Source: Escherichia phage vB_EcoP_B
Sequence record: NC_047806.1
Direction: 5' to 3' (one strand)
Length of the DNA stretch: 44,018 nt
Positions 3,246 through 25,632 of this stretch are shown piece by piece. Each line of letters begins with the position of its first letter. The stretch's first letter is position 1. The translations under genes and the position numbers were made by a program. The notes below the pieces were generated by a model. That model had not been told where the DNA came from. It made no database searches and saw only the letters and a program-made list of their open reading frames with translations.

Positions 3246-3716
3246 TTAAATATCCTCATCAATACATTCGTGACGATGCTTCTGGAATAGCTCTTTGTAG
3301 TAGTCTGCTTTCTTCAGATCTTCTTCCGTGTTGAATTTCTTCCCTGCACGCAGACGATACTTCAAAGCATTACCCATGCAATATCCAGCAAATTGCTTCT
3401 CGGTCATACTACGAGCAATGATAGTGATTGCCTCTACCCCATCGAAGAACTCGTAGTGCTTAGGCTTAGTAACCATATTGTTGTCCAACGTGCTAGGATC
3501 TTCACCTTGCAATGAGTCAACAACCTTGAAGTAAGGTGCATACCATTCGCGCTTCTCAACACCTTCTAACATGATAGAGTTATAATTAGGTTCTGCACGG
3601 GATACTTTGAATACCCCATCTGGTTTCTTGTCTAGGCTTTCACACAGTTTATTCCAGATGGCATCTCGGTAAGCTGCACGGCGTACGACGTATTCGCCAA
3701 TATAAATCTTTGACAT
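3246..3716 (-). CDS. hypothetical protein (156 aa), possibly DUF3310-like
   Basis: ORF track 3246..3731 trimmed to ATG 3714-3716 with GGAGGA SD; KPKHY...GNALKYRLRAGKK pattern (family assignment from memory, weak). Confidence 0.5.
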   Translation of the reverse strand: MSKIYIGEYVVRRAAYRDAIWNKLCESLDKKPDGVFKVSRAEPNYNSIMLEGVEKREWYAPYFKVVDSLQGEDPSTLDNNMVTKPKHYEFFDGVEAITIIARSMTEKQFAGYCMGNALKYRLRAGKKFNTEEDLKKADYYKELFQKHRHECIDEDI

Positions 3717-15883: not shown

Positions 15884-16012
15884 TTAGAACCCCCACGCAG
15901 CGCGTTTAGATGCACGGTCACGGACAGGTTTATTCAGCTTCTTGCCTTTCTTCTGCCCTTCTTCCATGTCAAAACGGTTAGCTTTACGGGTCATCTTCTC
16001 AAAGTTACGCAT
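15884..16012 (-). CDS. gp1.1-like small basic protein (42 aa); not in ORF track (<60 aa)
   Basis: ATG 16010-16012 with GGAG SD just downstream of promoter 16038-16060; translation MRNFEKMTRKANRFDMEEGQKKGKKLNKPVRDRASKRAAWGF resembles T7 gp1.1 (MRNFEKMT..., from memory). Confidence 0.5.
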   Translation of the reverse strand: MRNFEKMTRKANRFDMEEGQKKGKKLNKPVRDRASKRAAWGF

Positions 16013-16336: not shown

Positions 16337-18964
16337 TTATGCGAAACAATAGTCTGAAACTAAGATTTCGTTAAGGTCAAACTCCCCTTGCTCTGGTACT
16401 TGGATTCCGGTGTCTACTAACCAACGCTCTTCGTGCACATCTAGCAGGTTTTGCAGGGCATTATGGTTTTGATACATCTTAACCATTTCTTCCCTTAAGC
16501 TATCCCGCAGGTCTGCGGTACGTCCTGCATGAGTACCGAAAGAATCATGGATGACTGCAATGGATGTAATACCTTTATCCACTAGGTCACATACAGTCAG
16601 AATCAGGTGGCTAGCATCGTGACCATGGACGAAGTTAGGAGCAGCCGCACCCATCATTGCCGTTTCATCAACTACATCTGTTTCAATCTGGAGACTCATC
16701 TTGATTTCACCCATCAAGCAAGTGGATACGCGGAGCATATCTGTAGCCATTATCTTTTGTTGCAAGATGAAGCCAGTTGGTAAGGGATATTCTAAGCCTT
16801 CGTTTCTTTTAGCTGCGAAACGTGCAAGCTGACGAATCATTTTCATTGCCACTATAGGAGCTTTAACCACTTCCGAGATAGAAGGCCAGATTAAAGCTGT
16901 CATATAGTTATAAGCTGCGCTAGGTGTCAGGCTGTCTTTACGGTCATTATCAAAAGGGTGTACAGGATTGGCGGTACGCCCTTCCGCAATAGCCCGTTGG
17001 GCCTCTTTTTCTTCTAAATCAACGATATAATCAATCACTGACTCACGGCAGGTTAGACGTGTGCTGCCATAAGGTAGTGTCATTACGGGCTTTTTGGTCA
17101 GGCCGCGAGTGATTCCTATCATATCCCACGCACTAGCCATACTACGCAGTTCCGCACCTGTTAAAGTCACGCTGCCAGAAGTGAAGGTTTCCGCATCCTC
17201 TGCATTCATGTATGCATAATTCTTCTGAATTACTACCTGCGCAACGGCACCATAAATATCTTGAGGAGAGTCAGAGGGCTTAAGGTTTACTGCTTTCGCA
17301 CCTACTGCATCGCGTAGCATAGCACTGTAGTGCTGGATACCAGAACAACTACCATCTTGATGGACTGGGAGGTGCGTCATGAATTGGTCTTGCGTGCCTT
17401 CATCCAGTGCATCCAGATAACGCGCATATTCAAAGCACCATGCAAGGAAGCCGTAAGGGGAGTCGGCATTTACCCATTGAGTGAAGGTCAGCGGATCCGC
17501 TGCAATGTCGCGGCACATGTCTTGAAATTCACCATCCAGCACGTTAGCGGTGCGCACGTCAAAAGTTTTCTTATCCCAACCCCAGTTATTAGCCCCGTTC
17601 ACCAAAAACCACTTAAGCGCCTCAGCGCTATCAAGACGCTGCCCTTCGGTAAAACGGAGCAATGCCTTGCCTAAGTCGTTTGATTGCGGAGAGAGCGTGC
17701 TAGATTGCGCGTAGACGCGGCTGCGGCTGTCCAGAGCATACACGAAGTATATTGCGTCAAATTGGCTGTATTTACGGGCCTGCCCTACCATGCGGACGGT
17801 CGCCGCCGATTTGCTGCCGCGCTTAGTCTCAGCGGTATACAGCTTGGTGCATTCACCTTTCCAGTTGATGAAGGCTTGCCATTGTTCCGGTGTTAACATT
17901 TCTTTCAGTTCACGTCCTCGCAGGTGCTGGAACTCTAACGGCACCGGATTAGCTGGCTTGTTCTCACGGTCGATGAGTGGTTTAAAGGAAGGTACACCAT
18001 AGCCGAGGTCTAGACGTATAACGTCCTCCACAACCTGTAAAACCTCTTTATTAACCTGCCACTTAGTTGCCTGCAAAGCGTTAACAGCCTTATAAACGGC
18101 TGGCATTTGCTTTTTGGTCAGCTTGCGGACGTGCTCACGATTGCCTTTTACCAGACGAATACGGCTTGCTACTTTCTCAGTATGAAACCCACCGTTAAAA
18201 GGTGATACCCAAGGGCGGGGAGGTATAACGCAAGGTGCATAGGCAGGGCTGAGCTGCGCTACATGTTCCTTAAATGCAGTTATCCACTCTCCAACATGTT
18301 CACTGGTCTGTAAATAGTAAACACCATGCTTTCCGCCGTTAGTGCGCAAGGTACGAAGGAAGACAGGTTGACCATTGAAGAATACACTATTCTCCAATAT
18401 TTCGAGCAAGGTCATACCGATTTGCAGCAAGGTGTCTTTAGGCCATGCCTCCCAACGGGAGAAATCCGCGTCACGGTCAGCAACAGATTTCTCAGCTACT
18501 ACCGCTACGTTGTGCGCATGACGATAAGATTTAGTCTTGCTAGCCTTAAGCGACTTCTTCACTTTCTCAAAGTACTTAGCTGCGTGACCTTCCAGCTTGC
18601 TAAAACGTACTTGGTCTTCGATGCGGTCCGCTACATTCATAGCGATGGCTTGTAAGGTAACGTCTGTATTCAGCATGTCCATAACGATTTTCATGGTGAT
18701 ATATGCTGCTACTTCGTTTTCTACGCAGTTAATGAAAGCTAATGCACGCGGTGCGCGGCCTCTTTTACCTTCGTACTCTTCCTTATAAGCCTGAATACCT
18801 TCCGCCATAGGTGCGATTAGTTCGGACAATAAGCGGCGATTCCATGCCGTGTCTGATTCATTACCGGATGCAATCTGGCGTTGTTGGTCCGCTTCAAAGC
18901 GACGGATACCGCCGTTAAACATTTCTTCTTCAAGTTGAAGTTGAATAGCGTGTAGGTCTTGCAT
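16337..18964 (-). CDS. single-subunit DNA-directed RNA polymerase (T7/SP6-like), 875 aa
   Basis: ORF track; [18 protein letters not shown] and C-terminal ...DYCFA match T7 RNAP catalytic and foot motifs; length close to SP6-group RNAP; AGGAG SD. Confidence 0.9.
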
Positions 18965-19027
18965 CTTGTTTACTCCTAGTGAAAGAAACCTTAATAGGTG
19001 ACACCTAAGAAGATGCCACCGATAAGG

Positions 19028-19912
19028 TTACTTAGTCAACTCTTCTACTGCCTCAGAGATTAAGGGCCATGCTTCATGGCCTTCACCGTAGCCTAGCTTA
19101 ACCAGTTCGCGGCGTGCCTTGTTAACTGCTGTTTTCTTCGTTGCCTCCTCAGCGCTTAAACCTAAGCGAGCATAGAAGCAGGAAGATTTGAATTGCGGCA
19201 GCATAGGCGCGGCTGCCTTCTTGCTTTCGCGTGCGCTACTTAAGGAGGCGATGCGGTCATTGGCTGCCTGTAATTGCTCAGTCAGTGCTTTAATTTGTGC
19301 CAGCAGACCAGCAATAGCGGCATTCTCAGTATTAGCCGTGTTATCCAGCGGCGCGGCCTTCGGTGCCTCCGGCTTGCTTTCCTCTCCCCATGGTGCTGAT
19401 TCGTCGGCCTCCTGCTCGCTCGCGGGTGGCACTACCTGCGGCGCTTGCATTTCCTGTGATTCTGCGGCCTCAGTCGCGTTCTCCTGCGGTTTTACTGTCT
19501 CAGCCTTAGATTGTACCGTTTCGGCCTTTATCTCTTTCTTAGGCTCAATCAAGGCGTTTACGGAGTTAGTGTCCAGCTTGCCATCTGCGGCGAGTTCTGC
19601 GGCCTTCTCCATGATTATATTTTCATCAGCGAAAGGAACAAGCGCCAGCATTACACGCATAGCCACACCTTTAAAGCGTTCGTCTCCTTTAAAGACACGG
19701 GCTACACTCATCAGCTTGTAGCATTGTGCCTTCTTGATGCCGAACTCTGATTCTACATAAGCTAAAAAGTCTTTTTGACCTTCGAAATCACCGCGTAATT
19801 CATTCAGACAAGCGCCAACTTTGATGTAAGAAGTGCCGATATTGTCTAAGTGCTGCTTGATTTCAGCGGTTGCAGCTTCACGAACAGACAGGAGGATGTT
19901 TTCAGTAGTCAT
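19028..19912 (-). CDS. early protein of unknown function (about 294 aa) with acidic low-complexity linker
   Basis: ORF track 19028..19921 (GTG start) trimmed to ATG with AAGGTG SD. Confidence 0.55.
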   Translation of the reverse strand: MTTENILLSVREAATAEIKQHLDNIGTSYIKVGACLNELRGDFEGQKDFLAYVESEFGIKKAQCYKLMSVARVFKGDERFKGVAMRVMLALVPFADENIIMEKAAELAADGKLDTNSVNALIEPKKEIKAETVQSKAETVKPQENATEAAESQEMQAPQVVPPASEQEADESAPWGEESKPEAPKAAPLDNTANTENAAIAGLLAQIKALTEQLQAANDRIASLSSARESKKAAAPMLPQFKSSCFYARLGLSAEEATKKTAVNKARRELVKLGYGEGHEAWPLISEAVEELTK

Positions 19913-19976
19913 AATAGTCACCTTATATAGTGGTAAGTAAATATCACATAGCCCACACAGGCAGGCTATAGGCTAG

Positions 19977-20204
19977 TTACTTGATGTAATGCCACGTCTC
20001 TATAAATGCATCCTTACTTAATACGCACTCCATGCCTCCCGGTGTAACATATTCTACTAAGCCACCTCTCACACGAAGGTAATTACCGCCTTCCTTTCTT
20101 AGTTTGCGTTTAGCTTTATCGAATAAAAACTCACGGTAAAGGTGATAGGAGCACCAGCTTAAGCCAATAAGAGCAAATGCCATAATGATGCTATCTAAAT
20201 CCAT
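19977..20204 (-). CDS. early small membrane protein (75 aa)
   Basis: ORF track; N-terminal hydrophobic helix IIMAFALIGLSW; AGGAG SD. Confidence 0.5.
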   Translation of the reverse strand: MDLDSIIMAFALIGLSWCSYHLYREFLFDKAKRKLRKEGGNYLRVRGGLVEYVTPGGMECVLSKDAFIETWHYIK

Positions 20205-20269
20205 AGTCTTAACTCCTAGTAAGTGAAAGTTTAATCAGGCGCTACCGTAGCAACGCCTTGTTAAGCCTT

Positions 20270-20290
20270 CTCTTATAGTGTCAGCTAAAT
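20270..20290 (-). promoter_or_regulatory. phage RNAP promoter-like sequence in early region
   Basis: ATTTAGCTGACACTATAAGAG (SP6-like TGACAC, TATAAG instead of TATAGAAG). Confidence 0.4.
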
Positions 20291-20398
20291 AGTTTGTATG
20301 TAGTACCTAGCACTTCCTCACGAATCTGCGCAAATCGTAAGGAACATTTCAGGGTTACACCGTCTGAGAAGATGAAGTTATATTGCCTTTCCATCTTA

Positions 20399-20728
20399 TT
20401 ATTCCTCTTCTCCGCCTTCATACCAAACTACATCGCTGTCATTTGGTACATCATTATAAAGAGCTTCATAGATGCGAGCTTGTAGAATCTTGGTTACATC
20501 CTTCGTATCAGGAATCAAACCAGCATCTTCAAAATCAACATCAATGCCATCAGCAGCCATCACAGTAAAAATCTCACTGTAATAAACTGGCACCATGCTA
20601 TCTACAACCTCATGCAGTGCATCAGAGTAATCATCATCTTCACGAATCTCATCGTACTTGATGCGCTCGTTGAATGCTTCAACAGTTGCAGCCAGAAGGT
20701 TGTAGTAAGCGTTAGCGTTGCGTTCCAT
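20399..20728 (-). CDS. ocr: Ocr-like antirestriction DNA-mimic protein (gp0.3-like), 109 aa
   Basis: ORF track; block ERIKYDEIREDDDYSDALHEVVDSMVPVYYSEIFTVMAADGIDVDFEDAGLIPDTKDVTKILQARIYEAL closely parallels T7 Ocr as remembered; highly acidic. Confidence 0.7.
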   Translation of the reverse strand: MERNANAYYNLLAATVEAFNERIKYDEIREDDDYSDALHEVVDSMVPVYYSEIFTVMAADGIDVDFEDAGLIPDTKDVTKILQARIYEALYNDVPNDSDVVWYEGGEEE

Positions 20729-20818
20729 GATTTAATCCTCATTAGTTAGGTTACATTATAGGACACTCAAAGAATACCCTAGGTTTAACCTATCCAGACT
20801 AAGAAGCGACTACCCATA

Positions 20819-20864
20819 TTGTTAAAGAGCGTGGCTTGTGCCTTGATAGGCTGGCTAGTGCCAG
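20819..20864 (-). promoter_or_regulatory. early-mRNA processing-site candidate (hairpin + GCTCTTTAACAAT)
   Basis: exact 13-mer shared by three early intergenic sites, each next to an inverted repeat. Confidence 0.4.
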
Positions 20865-20872
20865 CAACTATT

Positions 20873-21037
20873 TTATAAGATACTATTCACAAGTTTATCT
20901 ATTTTAGCATTAATTGCAACCACTTTACTATAAAGTTTATCGTGTTTGCTCTTATCTGTGTTAGCTTGCCAAGCGGCATAAGCAACAGCAAGTTTCTCTT
21001 GCAATGCATCATAGCGTTTACGTTGTGCGTTAGTCAT
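20873..21037 (-). CDS. early small protein (54 aa); not in ORF track
   Basis: ATG 21035-21037 with AAGGTG SD; translation MTNAQRKRYDALQEKLAVAYAAWQ... Confidence 0.4.
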   Translation of the reverse strand: MTNAQRKRYDALQEKLAVAYAAWQANTDKSKHDKLYSKVVAINAKIDKLVNSIL

Positions 21038-21082
21038 GATAGTTCACCTTTGTTAGTAAGCCTATCAAGACACAAACCAGAT

Positions 21083-21119
21083 TGTTAAAGAGCGGGATGT
21101 TTAAAGACGTCGCCGTCTT
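21083..21119 (-). promoter_or_regulatory. early-mRNA processing-site candidate (hairpin + GCTCTTTAACAAT)
   Basis: palindrome AAGACGTCGCCGTCTT adjacent to the 13-mer. Confidence 0.4.
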
Positions 21120-21126
21120 GATGCTT

Positions 21127-21155
21127 AATGTAGCCTTGTATGCCGTGGTTGTCAA
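21127..21155 (-). promoter_or_regulatory. candidate host sigma70 early promoter
   Basis: minus strand TTGACA - 17 nt - TACATT, same architecture as 21822-21850. Confidence 0.45.
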
Positions 21156-21163
21156 TAGTTAAT

Positions 21164-21388
21164 TTAGAGATTTGTCGTGATTACTTCATCGTAATCATAA
21201 TCTTCACTGCCTAGATACTCAGTAATGACTTGGTTGTCATACTCAGATACTAAGGTAACTCGGTGATATTCAGTGTCGTAATCTATCAAATAGTGATACA
21301 CATCAACACCTACGCCAGCTTGCATCATATCATCATGGAAGCGGATAGCTTCACTAGCTGATTCGAAGAAAACCTCATGCTGATACAT
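21164..21388 (-). CDS. early very acidic small protein (74 aa)
   Basis: ORF track; 17 Asp/Glu vs 2 Arg/Lys; strong SD AAGGAGG. Confidence 0.5.
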   Translation of the reverse strand: MYQHEVFFESASEAIRFHDDMMQAGVGVDVYHYLIDYDTEYHRVTLVSEYDNQVITEYLGSEDYDYDEVITTNL

Positions 21389-21530
21389 CCTCTTTAACCT
21401 CCTTTAATGTAGAACGTGCATATCTGTTAGCATCGCCGTAAGCGTTAGGCGTGTATTGCGAGGTTTCATGGCCAGCAAACCACGCATCGACTAAGAGTTG
21501 CTTTAGTTGGTCTTCAGTCAACTGAATCAT
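21375..21530 (-). CDS. early small protein (51 aa); not in ORF track
   Basis: ATG 21528-21530 with AAGGAG SD; overlaps both neighbours. Confidence 0.35.
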   Translation of the reverse strand: MIQLTEDQLKQLLVDAWFAGHETSQYTPNAYGDANRYARSTLKEVKEDVSA

Positions 21531-21699
21531 TACTTAACTCCTTCATCAAGTCACGTTTCTTGTTAACTGTATCGGTCCAACTTTCGTTCAGGAAGCGGTG
21601 ATACAGTGCCAACTCGTCATCTGTAAGTAATTCGTTGTTACGAATCATGTAGCATAACAGAGTGAAGAGAACGGACAGTTCACGGTTATTTAATGTCAT
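21514..21699 (-). CDS. first early protein (about 61 aa)
   Basis: ORF track 21514..21741 trimmed to ATG 21697-21699 with GAGGTG SD. Confidence 0.45.
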   Translation of the reverse strand: MTLNNRELSVLFTLLCYMIRNNELLTDDELALYHRFLNESWTDTVNKKRDLMKELSNDSVD

Positions 21700-21758
21700 A
21701 GTTAACACCTCATTCAATAAGTAATTAACCACGGCATACATAGGTTACACTAAGCAAA

Positions 21759-21808
21759 TTGTTAAAGAGCAAGGCAACATAAGTCACCTACCGTTTGGCT
21801 ATGTTGCC
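21759..21808 (-). promoter_or_regulatory. early-mRNA processing-site candidate (hairpin + GCTCTTTAACAAT)
   Basis: inverted repeat GGCAACAT/ATGTTGCC adjacent to the 13-mer. Confidence 0.4.
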
Positions 21809-21821
21809 TCCCGATGGCTGT

Positions 21822-21850
21822 AATGTACTACTAGCTTTTGCCTGTGTCAA
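21822..21850 (-). promoter_or_regulatory. candidate host sigma70 early promoter
   Basis: minus strand TTGACA - 17 nt - TACATT, upstream of first early gene. Confidence 0.5.
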
Positions 21851-21915
21851 CACTAAGTTTCACTAAGATAGACTATTTATGTGATACATGTCACAACTAC
21901 TAAGACAAACCTAGG

Positions 21916-22085
21916 TTGTCTAACGTGTGAGACTAAGGAAAAAAAAAAAAAAAAAAAAGCAATAGATACAGAGCTAGGATAGGCTAGATTGGCTAGGTAT
22001 TCCAAACGTGAAGGGGAGAAAAAGGAAAAAAAAAAAAAAAAAAAAGCAATAGATACAGAGCTAGGATAGGCTAGATTGGCTAGGT
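21916..22085. repeat. tandem direct repeat (two about 87-bp units) each containing an A20 tract; probable genome-terminus / terminal-repeat junction
   Basis: 62-bp exact repeat GG-A20-GCAATAGATACAGAGCTAGGATAGGCTAGATTGGCTAGGT at 21937-21998 and 22024-22085; lies between last late gene and first early gene. Confidence 0.7.
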
Positions 22086-22185
22086 TTCTGGTGTTCCTCC
22101 TACTGCATCTTATCACTATTACCTACTCTCAGCGGTCTACCGACCGCGACCTAATTGCATCTTATAGCTTTAGCTATGCAATCAC

Positions 22186-22320
22186 TAAGGTCTGGCACTA
22201 AGACTAACTAAGGTACACTACTAAGTTGATACTAAGCTAAGCACTAAGGCTTTAACTAAGGCAACCCACTAAGGCTAACCTAAGCCATCCATCAAGGAAT
22301 AACCTAAGGTACACGTGAGC
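22186..22320. repeat. dense array of CTAAG-containing short repeats (11 copies in 135 bp)
   Basis: cactaagg, cactaaga, aactaagg, ... ; further copies scattered 21845-23060. Confidence 0.7.
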
Positions 22321-22847
22321 GAGTGAACGGAGCGCAAGCGGAGTGAGGAGCAGTGAGTGAAGCGTAGCGAAACGAACAGATAGCCCACACCCTCATGCCC
22401 TGTCAAACGCTCAGGAATGGCCCTAAAACGGCCTGTGTAAGCCCTAAGCGGTTGCACTAAGGCAATCACCTTGTCCAATACTAAGGCGCGCCCTAGCGCT
22501 TCCTAGGTGTTCTCCTTGTGCAGCCACTAAGAGCAGACCTCGGCAAGCTCTAGGCCACCCGTCGAGCTTCCTGCGGCAGCAGGTTGAAGACGGACCAGCC
22601 CAGCCCAATTCCCAAGCCAACCGCAGCGCGGCCCCATATGGGGGAAATCCGGCGAGGGCGAGGGCGAGAGAGCTGACACACGCCTATATCAAAATTTTGA
22701 CTTTGGTTACTTTGTGACCACCTTTGGTCTGCCCTTTTGGTTACACTAAGATTATTCCTGCTAAGTACAGGTACACCAGCAGTGGGCCATAGATACATGC
22801 TGTGCATAAGAGGGCTAACAGTAGGTCTTTCATGTTACCTCATTTGA

Positions 22848-23003
22848 TTACACTAAGTCGAATCCATTGGGTTGCTTCAGGTAAGCCTGTACAGTTCCAC
22901 CAAGAACCTTCTGGCTAGCCAGTGCAGACTCTTCAGTGTCATGTATCTTCCTGAGTACCTTACGTTTGAATGGGCCGACTCCATAAGTATGAATCCAAAT
23001 CAT
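22848..23003 (-). CDS. small ORF (51 aa) downstream of tailspike; tentative
   Basis: ATG 23001-23003 with strong SD AAAGGAGG; stop lies in a TTACACTAAG repeat. Confidence 0.3.
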   Translation of the reverse strand: MIWIHTYGVGPFKRKVLRKIHDTEESALASQKVLGGTVQAYLKQPNGFDLV

Positions 23004-23196
23004 CAAACCTCCTTTGGGTTGCACTAAGGGCCAACCTAAGCCAGCCCTTGTGCAGACTAAGTGTTACTGCTTCGCAGACGATGCAGAGGCCTTACTCAAT
23101 ACTCTACGTTGAACATCCTTGGCAATGGCATATGCCTGCTTAGGGTCACGTCCTGATTGAATAAGCTCTTCTGTGTTCTGGAGTACAGCAGCTTGC

Positions 23197-25632
23197 TTAA
23201 CTGGTTTTATTAGTGGCATACATCTCCTCTAACTTGTCTAAACGATAACGAGTATAAGCAGCCTCCAAGATTAAGATTTCACTATATCTAACACCAAACT
23301 GACCTTCTTCGAAGGAGACAATGCCGAAGTCGATTGCATCTAACCCTTCGGATGCAAAAGCAGCTACAATGTCTTGTGCCAATACACCAAAGTGAGTGTG
23401 ATGCACACCACTAGACATCTCTCCAATCAACTTGTACTGCTTGAAGGCAACCTTGCCCCATGCCTTTAGTACACCCTCATCAATACCTTGTGATCCATAC
23501 TTATGAGTGGCATCAGACGTAATAATAGGGTCACTTGTAAGATGGATAGTAGTGAATCTATTACGAGGGCCGCCAGCAGGATACACGTTATCATTGTATG
23601 GCATGATAGCCCCGCTTTGGAACAAGTGCTCATTGGCATTATATACTGCGCGTCTAGAAGTACTAGAACCTGCTCCATGTAAGGTAATTTGCGCACCGGT
23701 ATCTGCTGCTGTACCCTCTCCACCAGAGATGATGACACGTTGGGCAGTTGGGTTATCCGTTGGTATAGTCTTACCAATGAACCCATATTCACCTTCCATC
23801 AGCATCTCTGAGCGAATATTAGCACTTGTACTTGCCTTCAGGGTAAGGTGTTCGACAGTCATATCTGCGGCAACTACCTCTCCTGATAAGTGAAGTGGAG
23901 CAGGAATAGTACGAATACCATCAGTACCCATGAAGGTAGGTATAGCCTGACCCGGAGTTGCACCATATGTAAACTTACGAGATACACGATTGTCATTTGC
24001 AATCTGCATCTTATAGCAGTATATATCAGTGGGGTGTCCATGACCTTTAAATGGGTCTTTATCTTTGTTGTCACCATAAGTCATTGGGTTGAAATGGTTT
24101 TCTCCACCAAAGATATAGTAAATGTAGCTGTCTTTAACTACTACCGAACCTACACCTACACTAGAGTTCACAATGTCACCCTGATAGATTTGGTCTGTGA
24201 TGTTAACCCATTCAATGTCATCTGCATTCCACTTGTTTACATTCAATCGTGCATAGAAGGTACGAGGATAAGATGCCTTGTAACGATCATCGGGTGCACC
24301 TGCTTCCCATTCATTTTCTGCACGTTCTGAACCAAACATAATAAGGTCATCTCCTACTTTAGCAAAAGGTAAGGTAGTATGATGAACATTATGTGGAAAT
24401 CTTAGTGACTCCCAAGTTTGACCTATATCTCTACTACGATGCAGAGAGCTTCCTAGTCGATCGCCACGAGTACCACGAGTGATAAGGTACAATACACCGT
24501 CATAGTACTTGATGCATGGCTCTGCCGCATCTGGTTCATACTCAGATGGTATCTGACGACGAACATAATTAGATGGGCTATTGAAAGCATCAGGGAAGTA
24601 GAAAAGCCCAACTTCTCGTGGAGCTACATCACCTTGATGATAGCCCATAACAAAGCCATTGTTATCAATAGTAGCAAAGCTATGCACCTCTGTGACACGA
24701 GTGATTAGACCAAGATCTGTCTTACGCCAAGGAGATTTATGGAAAGAAGTACCCATGTGCCAACTCTTTCCAGCGTTATTCAAATCTGAAGTCTGCTGGT
24801 TAGGTGTAAGAACCGTGAAGTTGTCCTTATCTATTACTGTTGCAACCTTCATATCACCAGATACACCTGTTACCGCAGAGTTAGAGAAGTTAACAAAATC
24901 ACCAACGAAGAGTCCGTGATCAGGTACATGGATTGTTGCATATCTCTGATTTGCAGCCTTAGTGATACCACCAGTAAGATGCAGACTACGAGACATAGGG
25001 CGATCCCACAATGCACAATTGGTTAGTGCGTTCTTGGCTAAAGTACGTGTTTCAATCATGGCAAACAGACGGTTGCGACATACACCCATACTCATACAAT
25101 GATAGTTCACTGTAGGGTAATCTGGATGCAGATCAGTTAACCACTCTGGAGTAGACCATGTTTGACCATCGTCACCAGACTTAACCCATGATACATGCAG
25201 ACGACTAACACCATGACGGTCGCTACCCATGTAAGGTGCATATATCACGTTCTCATATACAAACGCTTTGTCTTGAGGCCAAGCATTGTAATAAGGGTTA
25301 TCCGTGATTTTATAGAGTTCACCATTGATAAAACCTTTACTCACATAGTAAAGAGGTTGACCTGCTAAACGTTCCCATACGAAGCGGGTGTTATAGAATC
25401 GCTCCATATCAGGTAAAGATGATACTTTGTAAGTAGCACCAGCACCGTCAATTCTCTTACCTGAAGCCATCGCTGCATTTACTGCATCTTGGTCGTTTGT
25501 CTTACCATCACCTTTGGCTCCAAAATCTTTAAGCGATACAACCTCGGTGAGCTTGTCATCCAAGTTACGCCAGATTGCACCTGCTATTTTACTCTTGAAT
25601 TTAACTAATGAAGAACCTAGTCTTTGAATCAT
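23197..25632 (-). CDS. tailspike with endosialidase (endo-N-acetylneuraminidase) catalytic domain, 811 aa
   Basis: ORF track; two sialidase Asp-boxes SGDDGQTW and SRDIGQTW; C-terminal chaperone-like segment; AAAGGAGG SD; last structural gene before genome end as in K1E/K1-5-type phages (from memory). Confidence 0.8.
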   Translation of the reverse strand: MIQRLGSSLVKFKSKIAGAIWRNLDDKLTEVVSLKDFGAKGDGKTNDQDAVNAAMASGKRIDGAGATYKVSSLPDMERFYNTRFVWERLAGQPLYYVSKGFINGELYKITDNPYYNAWPQDKAFVYENVIYAPYMGSDRHGVSRLHVSWVKSGDDGQTWSTPEWLTDLHPDYPTVNYHCMSMGVCRNRLFAMIETRTLAKNALTNCALWDRPMSRSLHLTGGITKAANQRYATIHVPDHGLFVGDFVNFSNSAVTGVSGDMKVATVIDKDNFTVLTPNQQTSDLNNAGKSWHMGTSFHKSPWRKTDLGLITRVTEVHSFATIDNNGFVMGYHQGDVAPREVGLFYFPDAFNSPSNYVRRQIPSEYEPDAAEPCIKYYDGVLYLITRGTRGDRLGSSLHRSRDIGQTWESLRFPHNVHHTTLPFAKVGDDLIMFGSERAENEWEAGAPDDRYKASYPRTFYARLNVNKWNADDIEWVNITDQIYQGDIVNSSVGVGSVVVKDSYIYYIFGGENHFNPMTYGDNKDKDPFKGHGHPTDIYCYKMQIANDNRVSRKFTYGATPGQAIPTFMGTDGIRTIPAPLHLSGEVVAADMTVEHLTLKASTSANIRSEMLMEGEYGFIGKTIPTDNPTAQRVIISGGEGTAADTGAQITLHGAGSSTSRRAVYNANEHLFQSGAIMPYNDNVYPAGGPRNRFTTIHLTSDPIITSDATHKYGSQGIDEGVLKAWGKVAFKQYKLIGEMSSGVHHTHFGVLAQDIVAAFASEGLDAIDFGIVSFEEGQFGVRYSEILILEAAYTRYRLDKLEEMYATNKTS

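Follow-up and report, generated by a model that had tools for sequence, protein, structure and literature searches.

The window analysed here is the 44,018-nucleotide DNA of Escherichia phage vB_EcoP_B (NC_047806.1). Its early region holds gp1, gp1.5, gp2, gp2.8, gp3 (Ocr), gp4, gp5 and gp6 upstream of the RNA polymerase gene, interspersed with promoter-like sites, hairpins and a repeated motif (Table 1). The region is 96% identical to the DNA of phage K1E across 97% of its length and matches it gene for gene, and window position 22669 aligns with K1E nucleotide 1. The comparison with the early genes of K1E and SP6 proposed in an earlier sequence-only reading of the region returned the same genes in the same order, the window genes pairing one-to-one with K1E (NC_007637) genes 1, 1.5, 2, 2.8, 3 (Ocr), 4, 5 and 6 and corresponding to SP6 genes 3-7; protein identities are 89-100% to K1E and 53-76% to SP6. 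However, K1E gene 2.5 is absent from the window, and the leader carries one 87-nt repeat unit more than that of K1E. The early block of K1E/SP6-type coliphages is well conserved, and its genes other than Ocr were previously catalogued as "hypothetical". Phages of the K1E, K1-5 and SP6 type are used against K1-capsulated E. coli and Salmonella, and we know of no function for their early genes besides Ocr.

Table 1. Features of the early region of the window, from high to low coordinates.
Feature	Position	Strand	Remarks
P1, sigma-70-like early promoter	21822..21850	-	TTGACA-17-TACATT, upstream of gp1; 10/12 consensus match only
GCTCTTTAACAAT motif, copy a	21758..21770	-	RNase III-site-like; between P1 and gp1
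gp1, 61 aa	21514..21699	-	first early gene, core; K1E gene 1; phrog_9275
gp1.5, 51 aa	21375..21530	-	rare accessory insert between gp1 and gp2; phrog_20928, E 4e-33
gp2, 74 aa	21164..21388	-	net charge -15; core family (SP6 gp4); predicted ferredoxin-like fold
P2, sigma-70-like promoter	21127..21155	-	directly after gp2; 10/12 match
GCTCTTTAACAAT motif, copy b	21081..21093	-	with copy c flanks the gp2.8 cassette
gp2.8, 54 aa	20873..21037	-	basic; accessory cassette in slot A; phrog_16783
GCTCTTTAACAAT motif, copy c	20818..20830	-	upstream of Ocr
gp3, Ocr DNA-mimic anti-restriction protein, 109 aa	20399..20728	-	annotated ocr-like in K1E
gp4, 37 aa	20281..20394	-	core; K1E gene 4; starts 5 nt after the Ocr stop codon
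Phage-RNA-polymerase promoter-like site TATTTAGCTGACACTATAAGAGAAG	20267..20292	-	overlaps gp4 stop codon
Stable hairpin	20225..20270	-	5' end of putative phage-polymerase transcript
gp5, 75 aa	19977..20204	-	N-terminal hydrophobic helix, then basic stretch; accessory cassette in slot B
Hairpin closing the slot-B cassette	19947..19970	-	terminator-like match
Degenerate second promoter-like sequence ATTTACTTACCACTATATAAGG	19921..19942	-	before gp6
gp6, 294 aa	19028..19912	-	
Single-subunit RNA polymerase (K1E gene 7)	16337..18964	-	ORF 875 aa; annotated in K1E; directly downstream of gp6

Genes and signals of the early region

All ORFs named in the sequence-only reading, among them the three of 51-61 aa (gp2.8, gp1.5 and gp1), lie on the minus strand, have the sizes and compositions it gave and carry ribosome-binding sites; one gene, gp4, had been overlooked. 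Every ORF matches a PHROG family (E 1e-29 to 1e-131), and pN/pS against relatives lies between 0.07 and 0.29, the values for gp1.5 and gp2.8 coming from only 5 and 7 differences. These matches and values indicate that the ORFs are more than chance, and the early ORFs evolve under purifying selection. Searches of Pfam, NCBIfam, PHROGs, PADLOC and the PDB yielded no housekeeping function for any non-Ocr ORF, an assignment that would have told against the earlier view of these genes as takeover or anti-defence candidates.

The Ocr-like call was correct. Judged by its profile match, the window protein is a secure member of PF08684: it scores 108.9 bits where the cut-off is 25 (E 2e-31) and spans positions 5-97 of the 101 in the profile. 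It also matches PDB 1s7z/2y7c at E 7e-28. It contains 28 D/E and 7 K/R residues (pI 4.05) and is 53% identical over 93 residues to T7 Ocr (gp0.3, PF08684, PDB 1S7Z), which is likewise acidic, early and preceded by a sigma-70 promoter and by the same 13-nt motif in its leader; the family is all-helical. Unlike T7 Ocr, which has 117 aa, the 109-aa window protein is not encoded by the first gene, gp1 and gp2 being expressed before it. Like its T7 relative, it would mimic DNA, as a dimer shaped like bent DNA, and in this way inhibit BREX and type I restriction.

The first gene, gp1, has a GAGGTG ribosome-binding site and is 64-96% identical across the related genomes (pN/pS 0.20). The small gp4 (74-100% identity) is among the best-conserved genes of the block, and phrog_11746 covers residues 10-46 of its longer ORF. 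Both gp4 and T7 gp0.4, an FtsZ inhibitor, follow Ocr, an analogy of position only; hhalign gave 9% for the single sequence, and with a gp0.4 family profile built from 13 sequences the value was 4.6%. No homology was found, and the candidate was rejected.

The 74-aa protein gp2 indeed has exactly 17 acidic (D/E) and 2 basic (K/R) residues (pI 4.05), but as an acidic DNA mimic it is an uncertain candidate. The net charge of the family ranges from -1 to -15, the extreme acidity being specific to the Vectrevirus subtype, and the prediction gives a generic ferredoxin-like fold (beta-alpha-beta-beta-alpha-beta) that resembles no known DNA mimic. A CutA/PII-like identity, which would call for a sequence relationship and a trimer with ligand loops, was rejected: at 10-16% identity no sequence relationship is detectable and the resemblance is one of fold only, the CutA/PII-like ferredoxin-fold proteins having ~100-112 aa against 74 in gp2.

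Among the signals, a site matching P2 occurs at the same position in 22/22 related genomes; sigma-70-like sites are not enriched over shuffles across the region. The window contains the motif GCTCTTTAACAAT three times as an exact match, with 0.11 copies expected. The same 13-mer stands at T7 positions 813-825, between promoter A3 and gene 0.3, and together with a conserved TG two bases downstream it is invariant in 4/4 aligned sequences including the T7 gene 0.3 leader. We take it to resemble the T7 R0.3 site, and its one 13-mer in common with T7 suggests a candidate RNase III-site-like motif; the sites fold no better than shuffles (z -0.2 to -1.9). For the phage polymerase, ATTTACTGGACACTATAGAAG has 12 good copies in the window, and GACACTATAAGA occurs at the position before gp5/gp6 in 21/22 genomes, its specificity bases differing between K1E-type and SP6-type phages. 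This promoter may be weak, since it carries A instead of G just after TATA. Where the putative transcript would begin, its 5' hairpin (-21.6 kcal/mol, z -4.3; 0/200 shuffles fold as well) is conserved, also in genomes whose slot B is empty.

Core genes and exchangeable cassettes

A presence matrix and clustering over 22 related genomes divide the genes sharply. While gp1, gp2, Ocr, gp4 and gp6 occur in 22/22, the only accessory genes are gp1.5 (2/22, K1E and the window), gp2.8 (4/22) and gp5 (5/22). The latter three behave as exchangeable accessory cassettes, the pattern expected of host-range or anti-defence genes.

Slot A lies between gp2/P2 and Ocr, bounded by copies of GCTCTTTAACAAT, and here it holds gp2.8 (10 K/R against 5 D/E, pI 9.8); gp1.5 is an insert apart from it, between gp1 and gp2. 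Most genomes without the slot-A cassette have a single GCTCTTTAACAAT copy after P2, two cassette-bearing genomes also have one, and three genomes have none.

Slot B is the interval between gp4 and gp6, occupied here by gp5. Its edges are conserved in the alignment. In relatives it is either empty (an 85-nt slot in three genomes) or taken by other small proteins, five in all, that have a hydrophobic helix. The gp5 gene is found in 5/22 genomes and in 30 phage records, all Vectrevirus-type (29 Escherichia phage/Vectrevirus and one Klebsiella phage), and it is only 88-91% identical to any database copy. The N-terminal membrane helix proposed for gp5 stood in part: there is a hydrophobic segment (residues 6-22) that sets the protein apart from the soluble early ORFs, but with a summed apparent insertion free energy of +1.7 kcal/mol, against at least +6.9 kcal/mol for the latter, its strength is only marginal. 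The closing hairpin (51-nt stretch 19935-19985, -15.9 kcal/mol, z -2.5) is present only where there is a cassette; similarly, ATTTACTTACCACTATATAAGG is found in cassette-bearing K1E-type genomes, is missing where the slot is empty and is not recognisable in SP6-type genomes.

We read the region as the class I (early) operon of a K1E-type Vectrevirus (Autographiviridae, Molineuxvirinae), comprising a backbone, cassette slots and the protein roles proposed below, and as a whole we consider this explanation probable. The operon would be read on the minus strand from the left end of the genome at ~22669, in the backbone order P1, gp1, gp2, P2, Ocr, gp4, phage promoter with 5' hairpin, gp6 and RNA polymerase, and the backbone would be broken by the exchangeable slots.

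Alternatively, all the small ORFs and gp6 could be fast-evolving accessory genes for anti-defence or host takeover, each directed at one host defence in the manner of Ocr. They lie on the first DNA to enter the cell, are co-transcribed with Ocr and have no housekeeping assignment; gp1.5, gp2.8 and gp5 are patchily distributed in slots with alternative occupants, and the N-terminal half of gp2 drops to 66-97% identity in phages whose gp6 is at least 90% identical. For these cassettes the suggestion of the sequence-only reading, which had named every non-Ocr protein that it listed as a candidate, is supported. An accessory role is not supported for gp1, gp2, gp4 and gp6, which are in all 22 genomes, gp6 being kept even across subfamilies and host genera. 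Further, pN/pS values of 0.10-0.20 give no sign of an arms race, no non-Ocr protein has sequence likeness to solved anti-defence proteins, and modelled gp6 and gp2 have no fold likeness to them. Taken over all the genes, this alternative is doubtful.

Domain architecture and distribution of gp6

In the class I operon as we read it, gp6 is the largest uncharacterised early gene, and its product is predicted to combine a KorB/ParB-type domain with an HPD-less J-like domain. Translation starts at the ATG at 19912 behind an AAGGTG ribosome-binding site, of which the GTG at 19921 is a part. The predicted architecture runs from a helix-turn-helix domain of the KorB/ParB-like kind (residues ~10-122) through an acidic disordered linker and a coiled coil (193-232) to the J-like domain (236-294). 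The acidic linker noted earlier is borne out at residues 126-190 (15 D/E against 6 K/R, pI 4.3), and its AlphaFold2 pLDDT is ~50 or lower, with block means of 46-51 over 131-190 and three segments below 50.

Sub-threshold matches link the N-terminus to DUF3102 and the C-terminus to DnaJ. For the N-terminal domain, a fold match to operator-binding domains of the ParB/KorB helix-turn-helix type was found, and the most conserved stretch of the protein, FGIKKAQxYKLM, is the putative helix-turn-helix. DUF3102 (PF11300) matches 25/76 relatives at E <0.01 (best 1.5e-7) and not the window protein; ten relatives scanned one by one scored just under the 24.4-bit cut-off. In contrast to KorB, ParB and SopB, gp6 lacks the ParB N-terminal CTPase and dimerisation domains, the CTP-binding (ParB/Srx) domain having a Pfam match in 0/76 relatives. 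It has no significant sequence similarity to KorB, its helix-turn-helix domain is joined to a coiled coil and a J-like domain, and the plasmid collection yielded nothing similar to it. With a pI of 5.2 the N-terminal domain is mildly acidic, which would be unusual for a non-specific DNA binder, and no DNA target was identified for it.

For the C-terminal domain, J-domains came top in the PDB profile search, hhalign gave 95.6% in a comparison with negative controls, and the helix II/helix III hairpin fold and profile-level similarity point to the J-domain (PF00226). At the PF00226 gathering score of 27.8 bits the window protein has no match, and the best relative reaches 18.4 bits. HPD is absent in 76/76 aligned relatives, which carry GYGEG-HEA or IYTAxxxPEA instead, so the domain is classed as J-like and not as a functional J-domain. 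It differs from PF00226 and from HPD-less J-like domains such as Tim16/Pam16 by GYGEG or IYTAxx in place of HPD, the lack of helix IV and its location at the C-terminus behind a DNA-binding domain.

The gp6 family comprises 130 representatives at 50% identity and occurs in 212 phage records, which measure 43.5-48 kb among the 40 listed. In SP6, Klebsiella Kp7, Vibrio VEN, Pseudomonas Nerthus and Marinomonas CPG1g the gene lies beside the RNA polymerase gene or one gene away, a location kept from Escherichia to Vibrio, Pseudomonas and Marinomonas phages. The N-terminal 300 residues of the polymerase are 85-100% identical in relatives. The conserved position of gp6 points to a core function among the early genes, and less to a counter-defence against particular hosts.

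Possible roles of the early proteins

The gp0.7-type kinase that the sequence-only reading did not see is absent: tblastn with T7 gp0.7 gave nothing below E = 1 (best E 1.4, outside the early region), Pfam gave no kinase match, and no homologue of T7 gp2 was found in the window. As there is no homologue of T7 gp0.7 or gp2, some early protein of unassigned role must take over the host. For gp6, the predicted domains suggest a coiled-coil oligomer that would bind DNA through its KorB/ParB-type helix-turn-helix, with the J-like domain docking proteins and not activating Hsp70 ATPase. It would be co-expressed with the RNA polymerase from the conserved phage promoter and would most likely serve as a core early regulator or DNA organiser, in shutting off host or early transcription or in handling the entering genome. 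The small, acidic gp2 with its ferredoxin-like fold would bind a host protein, and gp5 and its slot-mates would be accessory factors anchored in the membrane, with a part in superinfection exclusion or in countering envelope-associated defences.

A more specific proposal makes gp6 the SP6-group counterpart of the shut-off part of T7 gp0.7, a DNA-binding early protein that would repress the transcription of host and early phage genes by the E. coli RNA polymerase. The protein sits in the place of gp0.7 (kinase plus shut-off domain) in a window without gp0.7 and gp2 homologues, and it has a helix-turn-helix domain like that of KorB, a global repressor. The gp0.7-type protein JSS1_004 has a C-terminal shut-off domain that binds DNA (PMC12345140). 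However, the analogy with T7 gp0.7, gp0.4, gp0.5 and gp0.6 is positional only; tblastn finds no homology, and gp6 has no sequence or fold similarity to gp0.7. Further, a gp6-like gene and a 'protein kinase' are annotated side by side in Vibrio phage phiA318, so that the two may coexist (PMC4099482). The surroundings of P1 and P2 yielded no operator-like palindrome. We regard the proposal as unlikely. To an equal degree, it is unlikely that gp6 represents a family of early proteins, so far undescribed and widely conserved in Molineuxvirinae and Colwellvirinae, that joins a KorB-like DNA-binding domain to a J-domain without HPD and takes over the host by a new route in phages without gp0.7 and gp2; if it does, gp6 might, for example, tether or sequester DnaK/DnaJ or another partner on DNA and so silence host transcription.

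Still less probable is a hijacking or blocking of host Hsp70, in which the J-like domain would dock DnaK or a host J-protein, as Tim16 docks on Tim14, and the helix-turn-helix would localise the complex on DNA. The HPD needed for Hsp70 ATPase stimulation is missing, which makes a link to DnaK speculative, and the J-like domain stops after helix III. That gp1.5, gp2.8 and gp4 are chance ORFs in leader or spacer RNA is hardly credible: they are short (37-54 aa), and the substitutions in the first two are too few to judge selection, but each belongs to a PHROG family at E 1e-29 or better, has a ribosome-binding site and is annotated in K1E, and gp4, present in all 22 genomes, has a pN/pS of 0.12 over 340 differences.

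Returning to the class I operon reading, its domain assignment for gp6 makes DNA binding, the partners of the J-like domain and the deletion phenotype concrete targets. The current understanding of phage biology would change only if the mechanism of gp6 proves new. The core set of gp1, gp2, gp4 and gp6 is where essential takeover functions may be sought and the exchangeable set of gp1.5, gp2.8 and gp5 where host-range determinants may be sought, slot B being a tidy natural library for envelope-directed phage factors.

The early region and its gene set

The 44-kb window is the complete genome of a K1E-type podovirus (Vectrevirus, Molineuxvirinae), presented in circularly permuted form and as the minus strand. 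Positions 18900-22300 match Escherichia phage K1E at 96% identity over 97% of their length, and K1E nucleotide 1 (TCTCGCCCTCGCCCTCGCC...) aligns to about position 22669. Judged from this alignment, the genome is linear and the window holds it in circularly permuted order. The right-end genes (22848-23219) and an 811-aa ORF (23197-25632), which we take to be an endosialidase-type tailspike, thus directly abut the left end, and the region studied is the class I early region, which runs from the first gene up to the one ahead of the RNA polymerase. These genes were known before, being annotated in K1E as hypothetical proteins. Full-text literature searches returned no work on the function of K1E gp1-gp6 or of SP6 gp3-gp7; the sole mention found was in a genome paper, which labels gp6 'of unidentified function' (PMC4099482).

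The ORFs listed in the sequence-only reading are all present, with the lengths and compositions it gave. The early ORFs are real genes: all match PHROG families of unknown function (E 1e-29 or better), all are preceded by Shine-Dalgarno sequences, and pN/pS against relatives is 0.07-0.29. Support is thinnest for gp1.5 and gp2.8, where it rests on few substitutions. The insertion free energy summed over the hydrophobic segment of gp5 is +1.7 kcal/mol, versus at least +6.9 kcal/mol for the soluble early ORFs.

Early genes of the window (K1E numbering)
Gene	Position	Strand	Length (aa)	Features
gp6	19028-19912	minus	294	linker at 126-190 with 15 acidic and 6 basic residues, pLDDT about 50 or lower
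gp5	19977-20204	minus	75	hydrophobic segment, residues 6-22
gp4	20281-20394	minus	37	overlooked in the sequence-only reading
gp3 (Ocr-like)	20399-20728	minus	109	28 D/E, 7 K/R
gp2.8	20873-21037	minus	54	
gp2	21164-21388	minus	74	17 D/E, 2 K/R
gp1.5	21375-21530	minus	51	
gp1	21514-21699	minus	61	

Several other features accompany these genes. The leader of gp5 with its ribosome-binding region (20202-20235) is similar to that of the RNA polymerase gene (18962-18995; 74% over 34 nt). A 177-aa antisense ORF, Ala/Ser-rich and of low complexity, lies inside the gp6 linker region (19188-19721, plus strand) and probably reflects the acidic-linker composition rather than a gene. The non-coding leader holds an 87-nt tandem duplication (21929-21998 and 22016-22085; 70-nt matching core, 97% identical) across which K1E aligns as though it had a single unit. 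Each unit contains a homopolymer of 20 nt, A20 when read on the plus strand and T20 on the gene strand. The hexamer CTTAGT is strongly clustered at 21700-23050 (minus strand), with 20 of its 35 window copies in kilobases 21-23. The cluster spans the genome left end to gp1 and the surroundings of the right end, and is reminiscent of the short repeat arrays beside the T7 terminal repeats.

Core genes, exchangeable cassettes and putative regulatory sites

The comparison covered 22 genomes, from K1E-type to SP6-type, namely 19 related viral contigs fetched via gp6, K1E, mutPK1A2 and the window. The small early proteins had been proposed as a group to be host-takeover or anti-defence candidates, and this is partly supported: gp1.5, gp2.8 and gp5 behave as exchangeable accessory cassettes (present in 2, 4 and 5 of the 22 genomes). 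However, gp1, gp2, gp4 and gp6 belong to the core of the SP6/K1E group, their families being found, like Ocr and the RNA polymerase, in 22/22. K1E gene 2.5 (70 aa), whose C-terminal end is helix-turn-helix-like (VSKATGYRWLKAL), occurs in four genomes of the set and is missing from the window at its expected site, 21038-21163.

The cassettes sit in two slots. Slot B, between gp4 and gp6, has conserved edges and is empty in some genomes (85 nt). Its occupants are gp5, a 51-63-aa family that includes SP6 gp6, a 61-aa signal-peptide-like protein, a 41-aa protein with a C-terminal hydrophobic helix, a 65-aa protein and a 63-aa protein unique to SP6; five of these six families, gp5 included, were scored, and all five have a hydrophobic helix. 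Slot A lies between gp2 and Ocr, and its cassettes are flanked by copies of GCTCTTTAACAAT, which has three exact copies in the window against 0.11 expected. Most genomes without a slot-A cassette keep a single copy after the promoter-like site that follows gp2. A single copy is also present in L007 and L010, which do have a cassette, and L015, L016 and L021 have no copy. This 13-mer also occurs in T7 between promoter A3 and gene 0.3, the stretch to which RNase III site R0.3 maps. Since the predicted folds of the RNase III-like sites were no better than shuffles and lent no thermodynamic support, it is by analogy with T7 that we infer that GCTCTTTAACAAT may be an RNase III site.

Two sigma-70-like sites (TTGACA-17-TACATT) were found, one before gp1 and one after gp2, the latter conserved in all 22 genomes. 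Further, the gp4 stop codon is overlapped by a phage-polymerase promoter-like sequence, TATTTAGCTGACACTATAAGAG, whose consensus ATTTACTGGACACTATAGAAG has 12 good copies elsewhere in the window. Its core GACACTATAAGA is at the same position in 21/22 genomes, its upstream specificity bases switch according to whether the polymerase is K1E-type or SP6-type, and a very stable hairpin follows it (-21.6 kcal/mol, z -4.3). The conserved site and the hairpin suggest that the phage's own polymerase probably contributes to transcription of gp6, the polymerase gene and, in genomes that have it, gp5. The only Rfam result was a sub-threshold miRNA-like match that merely marks the hairpin (20210-20281), and a search for operator-like palindromes for a KorB-like protein gave none that was convincing.

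Ocr, gp2 and the T7 counterparts

The Ocr-like protein is a genuine Ocr, as had been called from the sequence: it matches PF08684 at 108.9 bits and T7 Ocr structures at E 7e-28, and is 53% identical to T7 gp0.3. Pfam, NCBIfam and PADLOC gave no assignment for any other ORF, and in direct searches neither gp6 nor the gp2 family matched PDB sequences, so that these searches placed none of the remaining ORFs among known housekeeping functions. The reported lack of a gp0.7-type kinase was likewise upheld, as tblastn with T7 proteins over the whole window detected no homologue of gp0.7, gp0.4, gp0.5, gp0.6, gp1.2, gp4.5 or the RNA polymerase inhibitor gp2. It did reveal homologues of T7 gp1.1 (15890-16012, 54% identity), which lies shortly after the polymerase gene, and of the gp1.7 nucleotide kinase (3264-3587, 49% identity).

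The window's gp1, gp2 and gp4 have no similarity to T7 gp0.5 and gp0.6. One candidate, gp4 as a divergent T7 gp0.4, was rejected: the hhalign probability of 9% with a single sequence dropped to 4.6% once a family profile of gp0.4 was used, leaving a positional analogy alone, in that both come after Ocr. The likeness of gp6 to the T7 gp0.7-type proteins, in which a kinase is joined to a DNA-binding shut-off domain (PMC12345140), is also one of position only.

A profile query for the gp2 family returned 92 clusters, all of 49-74 aa and including SP6 gp4; their contigs are phages of ~42-46 kb wherever near-complete, many others being short fragments. AlphaFold2 gives gp2 a confident beta-alpha-beta-beta-alpha-beta model (pLDDT 94, pTM 0.81). 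The 74-aa Vectrevirus subtype has a net charge of -9 to -15 versus -1 to -9 elsewhere, so extreme acidity is no family trait. Within this subtype the C-terminal EYLGSEDYDYDEVITT is invariant and the N-terminal half variable. A role for gp2 as a DNA mimic is neither supported nor excluded.

A conserved gene beside the polymerase

By tblastn, gp6 is found in 212 phage records; among the 40 matches listed, genome sizes are 43.5-48 kb, and hosts among the matches listed include Escherichia, Salmonella, Klebsiella, Proteus, Erwinia, Pectobacterium, Vibrio, Pseudomonas, Shewanella and Marinomonas. Salmonella phage SP6 gp7 is 65% identical to it. An exhaustive HMMER search gave 130 representatives at 50% identity; almost all share one full-length architecture, and many are N-terminally extended. 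The gene adjoins that of the RNA polymerase or stands one small gene away.

The AlphaFold2 model (76 relatives, pLDDT 82) has a helical domain (10-122) and a second, small one (239-293), separated by the disordered acidic linker and a helix of 40 residues (193-232). DUF3102 was matched in the N-domain of 25/76 relatives and DnaJ in 5/76, C-terminally in the one whose match was located; the sequence evidence agrees with the predicted domains. J-domains top the PDB list for the family profile, and hhalign aligned the C-domain family to a J-domain profile, assembled by hand from ten J-domain sequences, at 95.6% (E 1e-8), with the controls (reversed profile, gp6 N-domain, gp2 family) all below 1%. 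The hallmark of a functional J-domain is the HPD tripeptide. As HPD is absent in 76/76 relatives, the C-terminal domain is, on sequence grounds, best described as J-like rather than as a functional J-domain. Conservation across the family peaks at FGIKKAQxYKLM, a putative helix-turn-helix. A search for N-domain relatives on plasmids gave no significant match. In many distant relatives the N-terminus is longer by 70-150 residues (e.g. P0156, residues 67-102), and in one the extension weakly matches the prokaryotic HU-like domain PF18175 (E 0.015).

In the mechanism proposed, gp6 would be a coiled-coil oligomer that binds DNA and would dock a partner via its degenerate J-domain. That it represents a new kind of host-takeover factor seems unlikely. 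What is newly described here is the two-slot cassette architecture, the domain reading of gp6, the predicted gp2 fold and the conserved, putative phage promoter that precedes gp6 and the polymerase gene. Because gp6 is conserved and linked to the polymerase gene, our reading is that it has a core early role rather than one in host-specific counter-defence.
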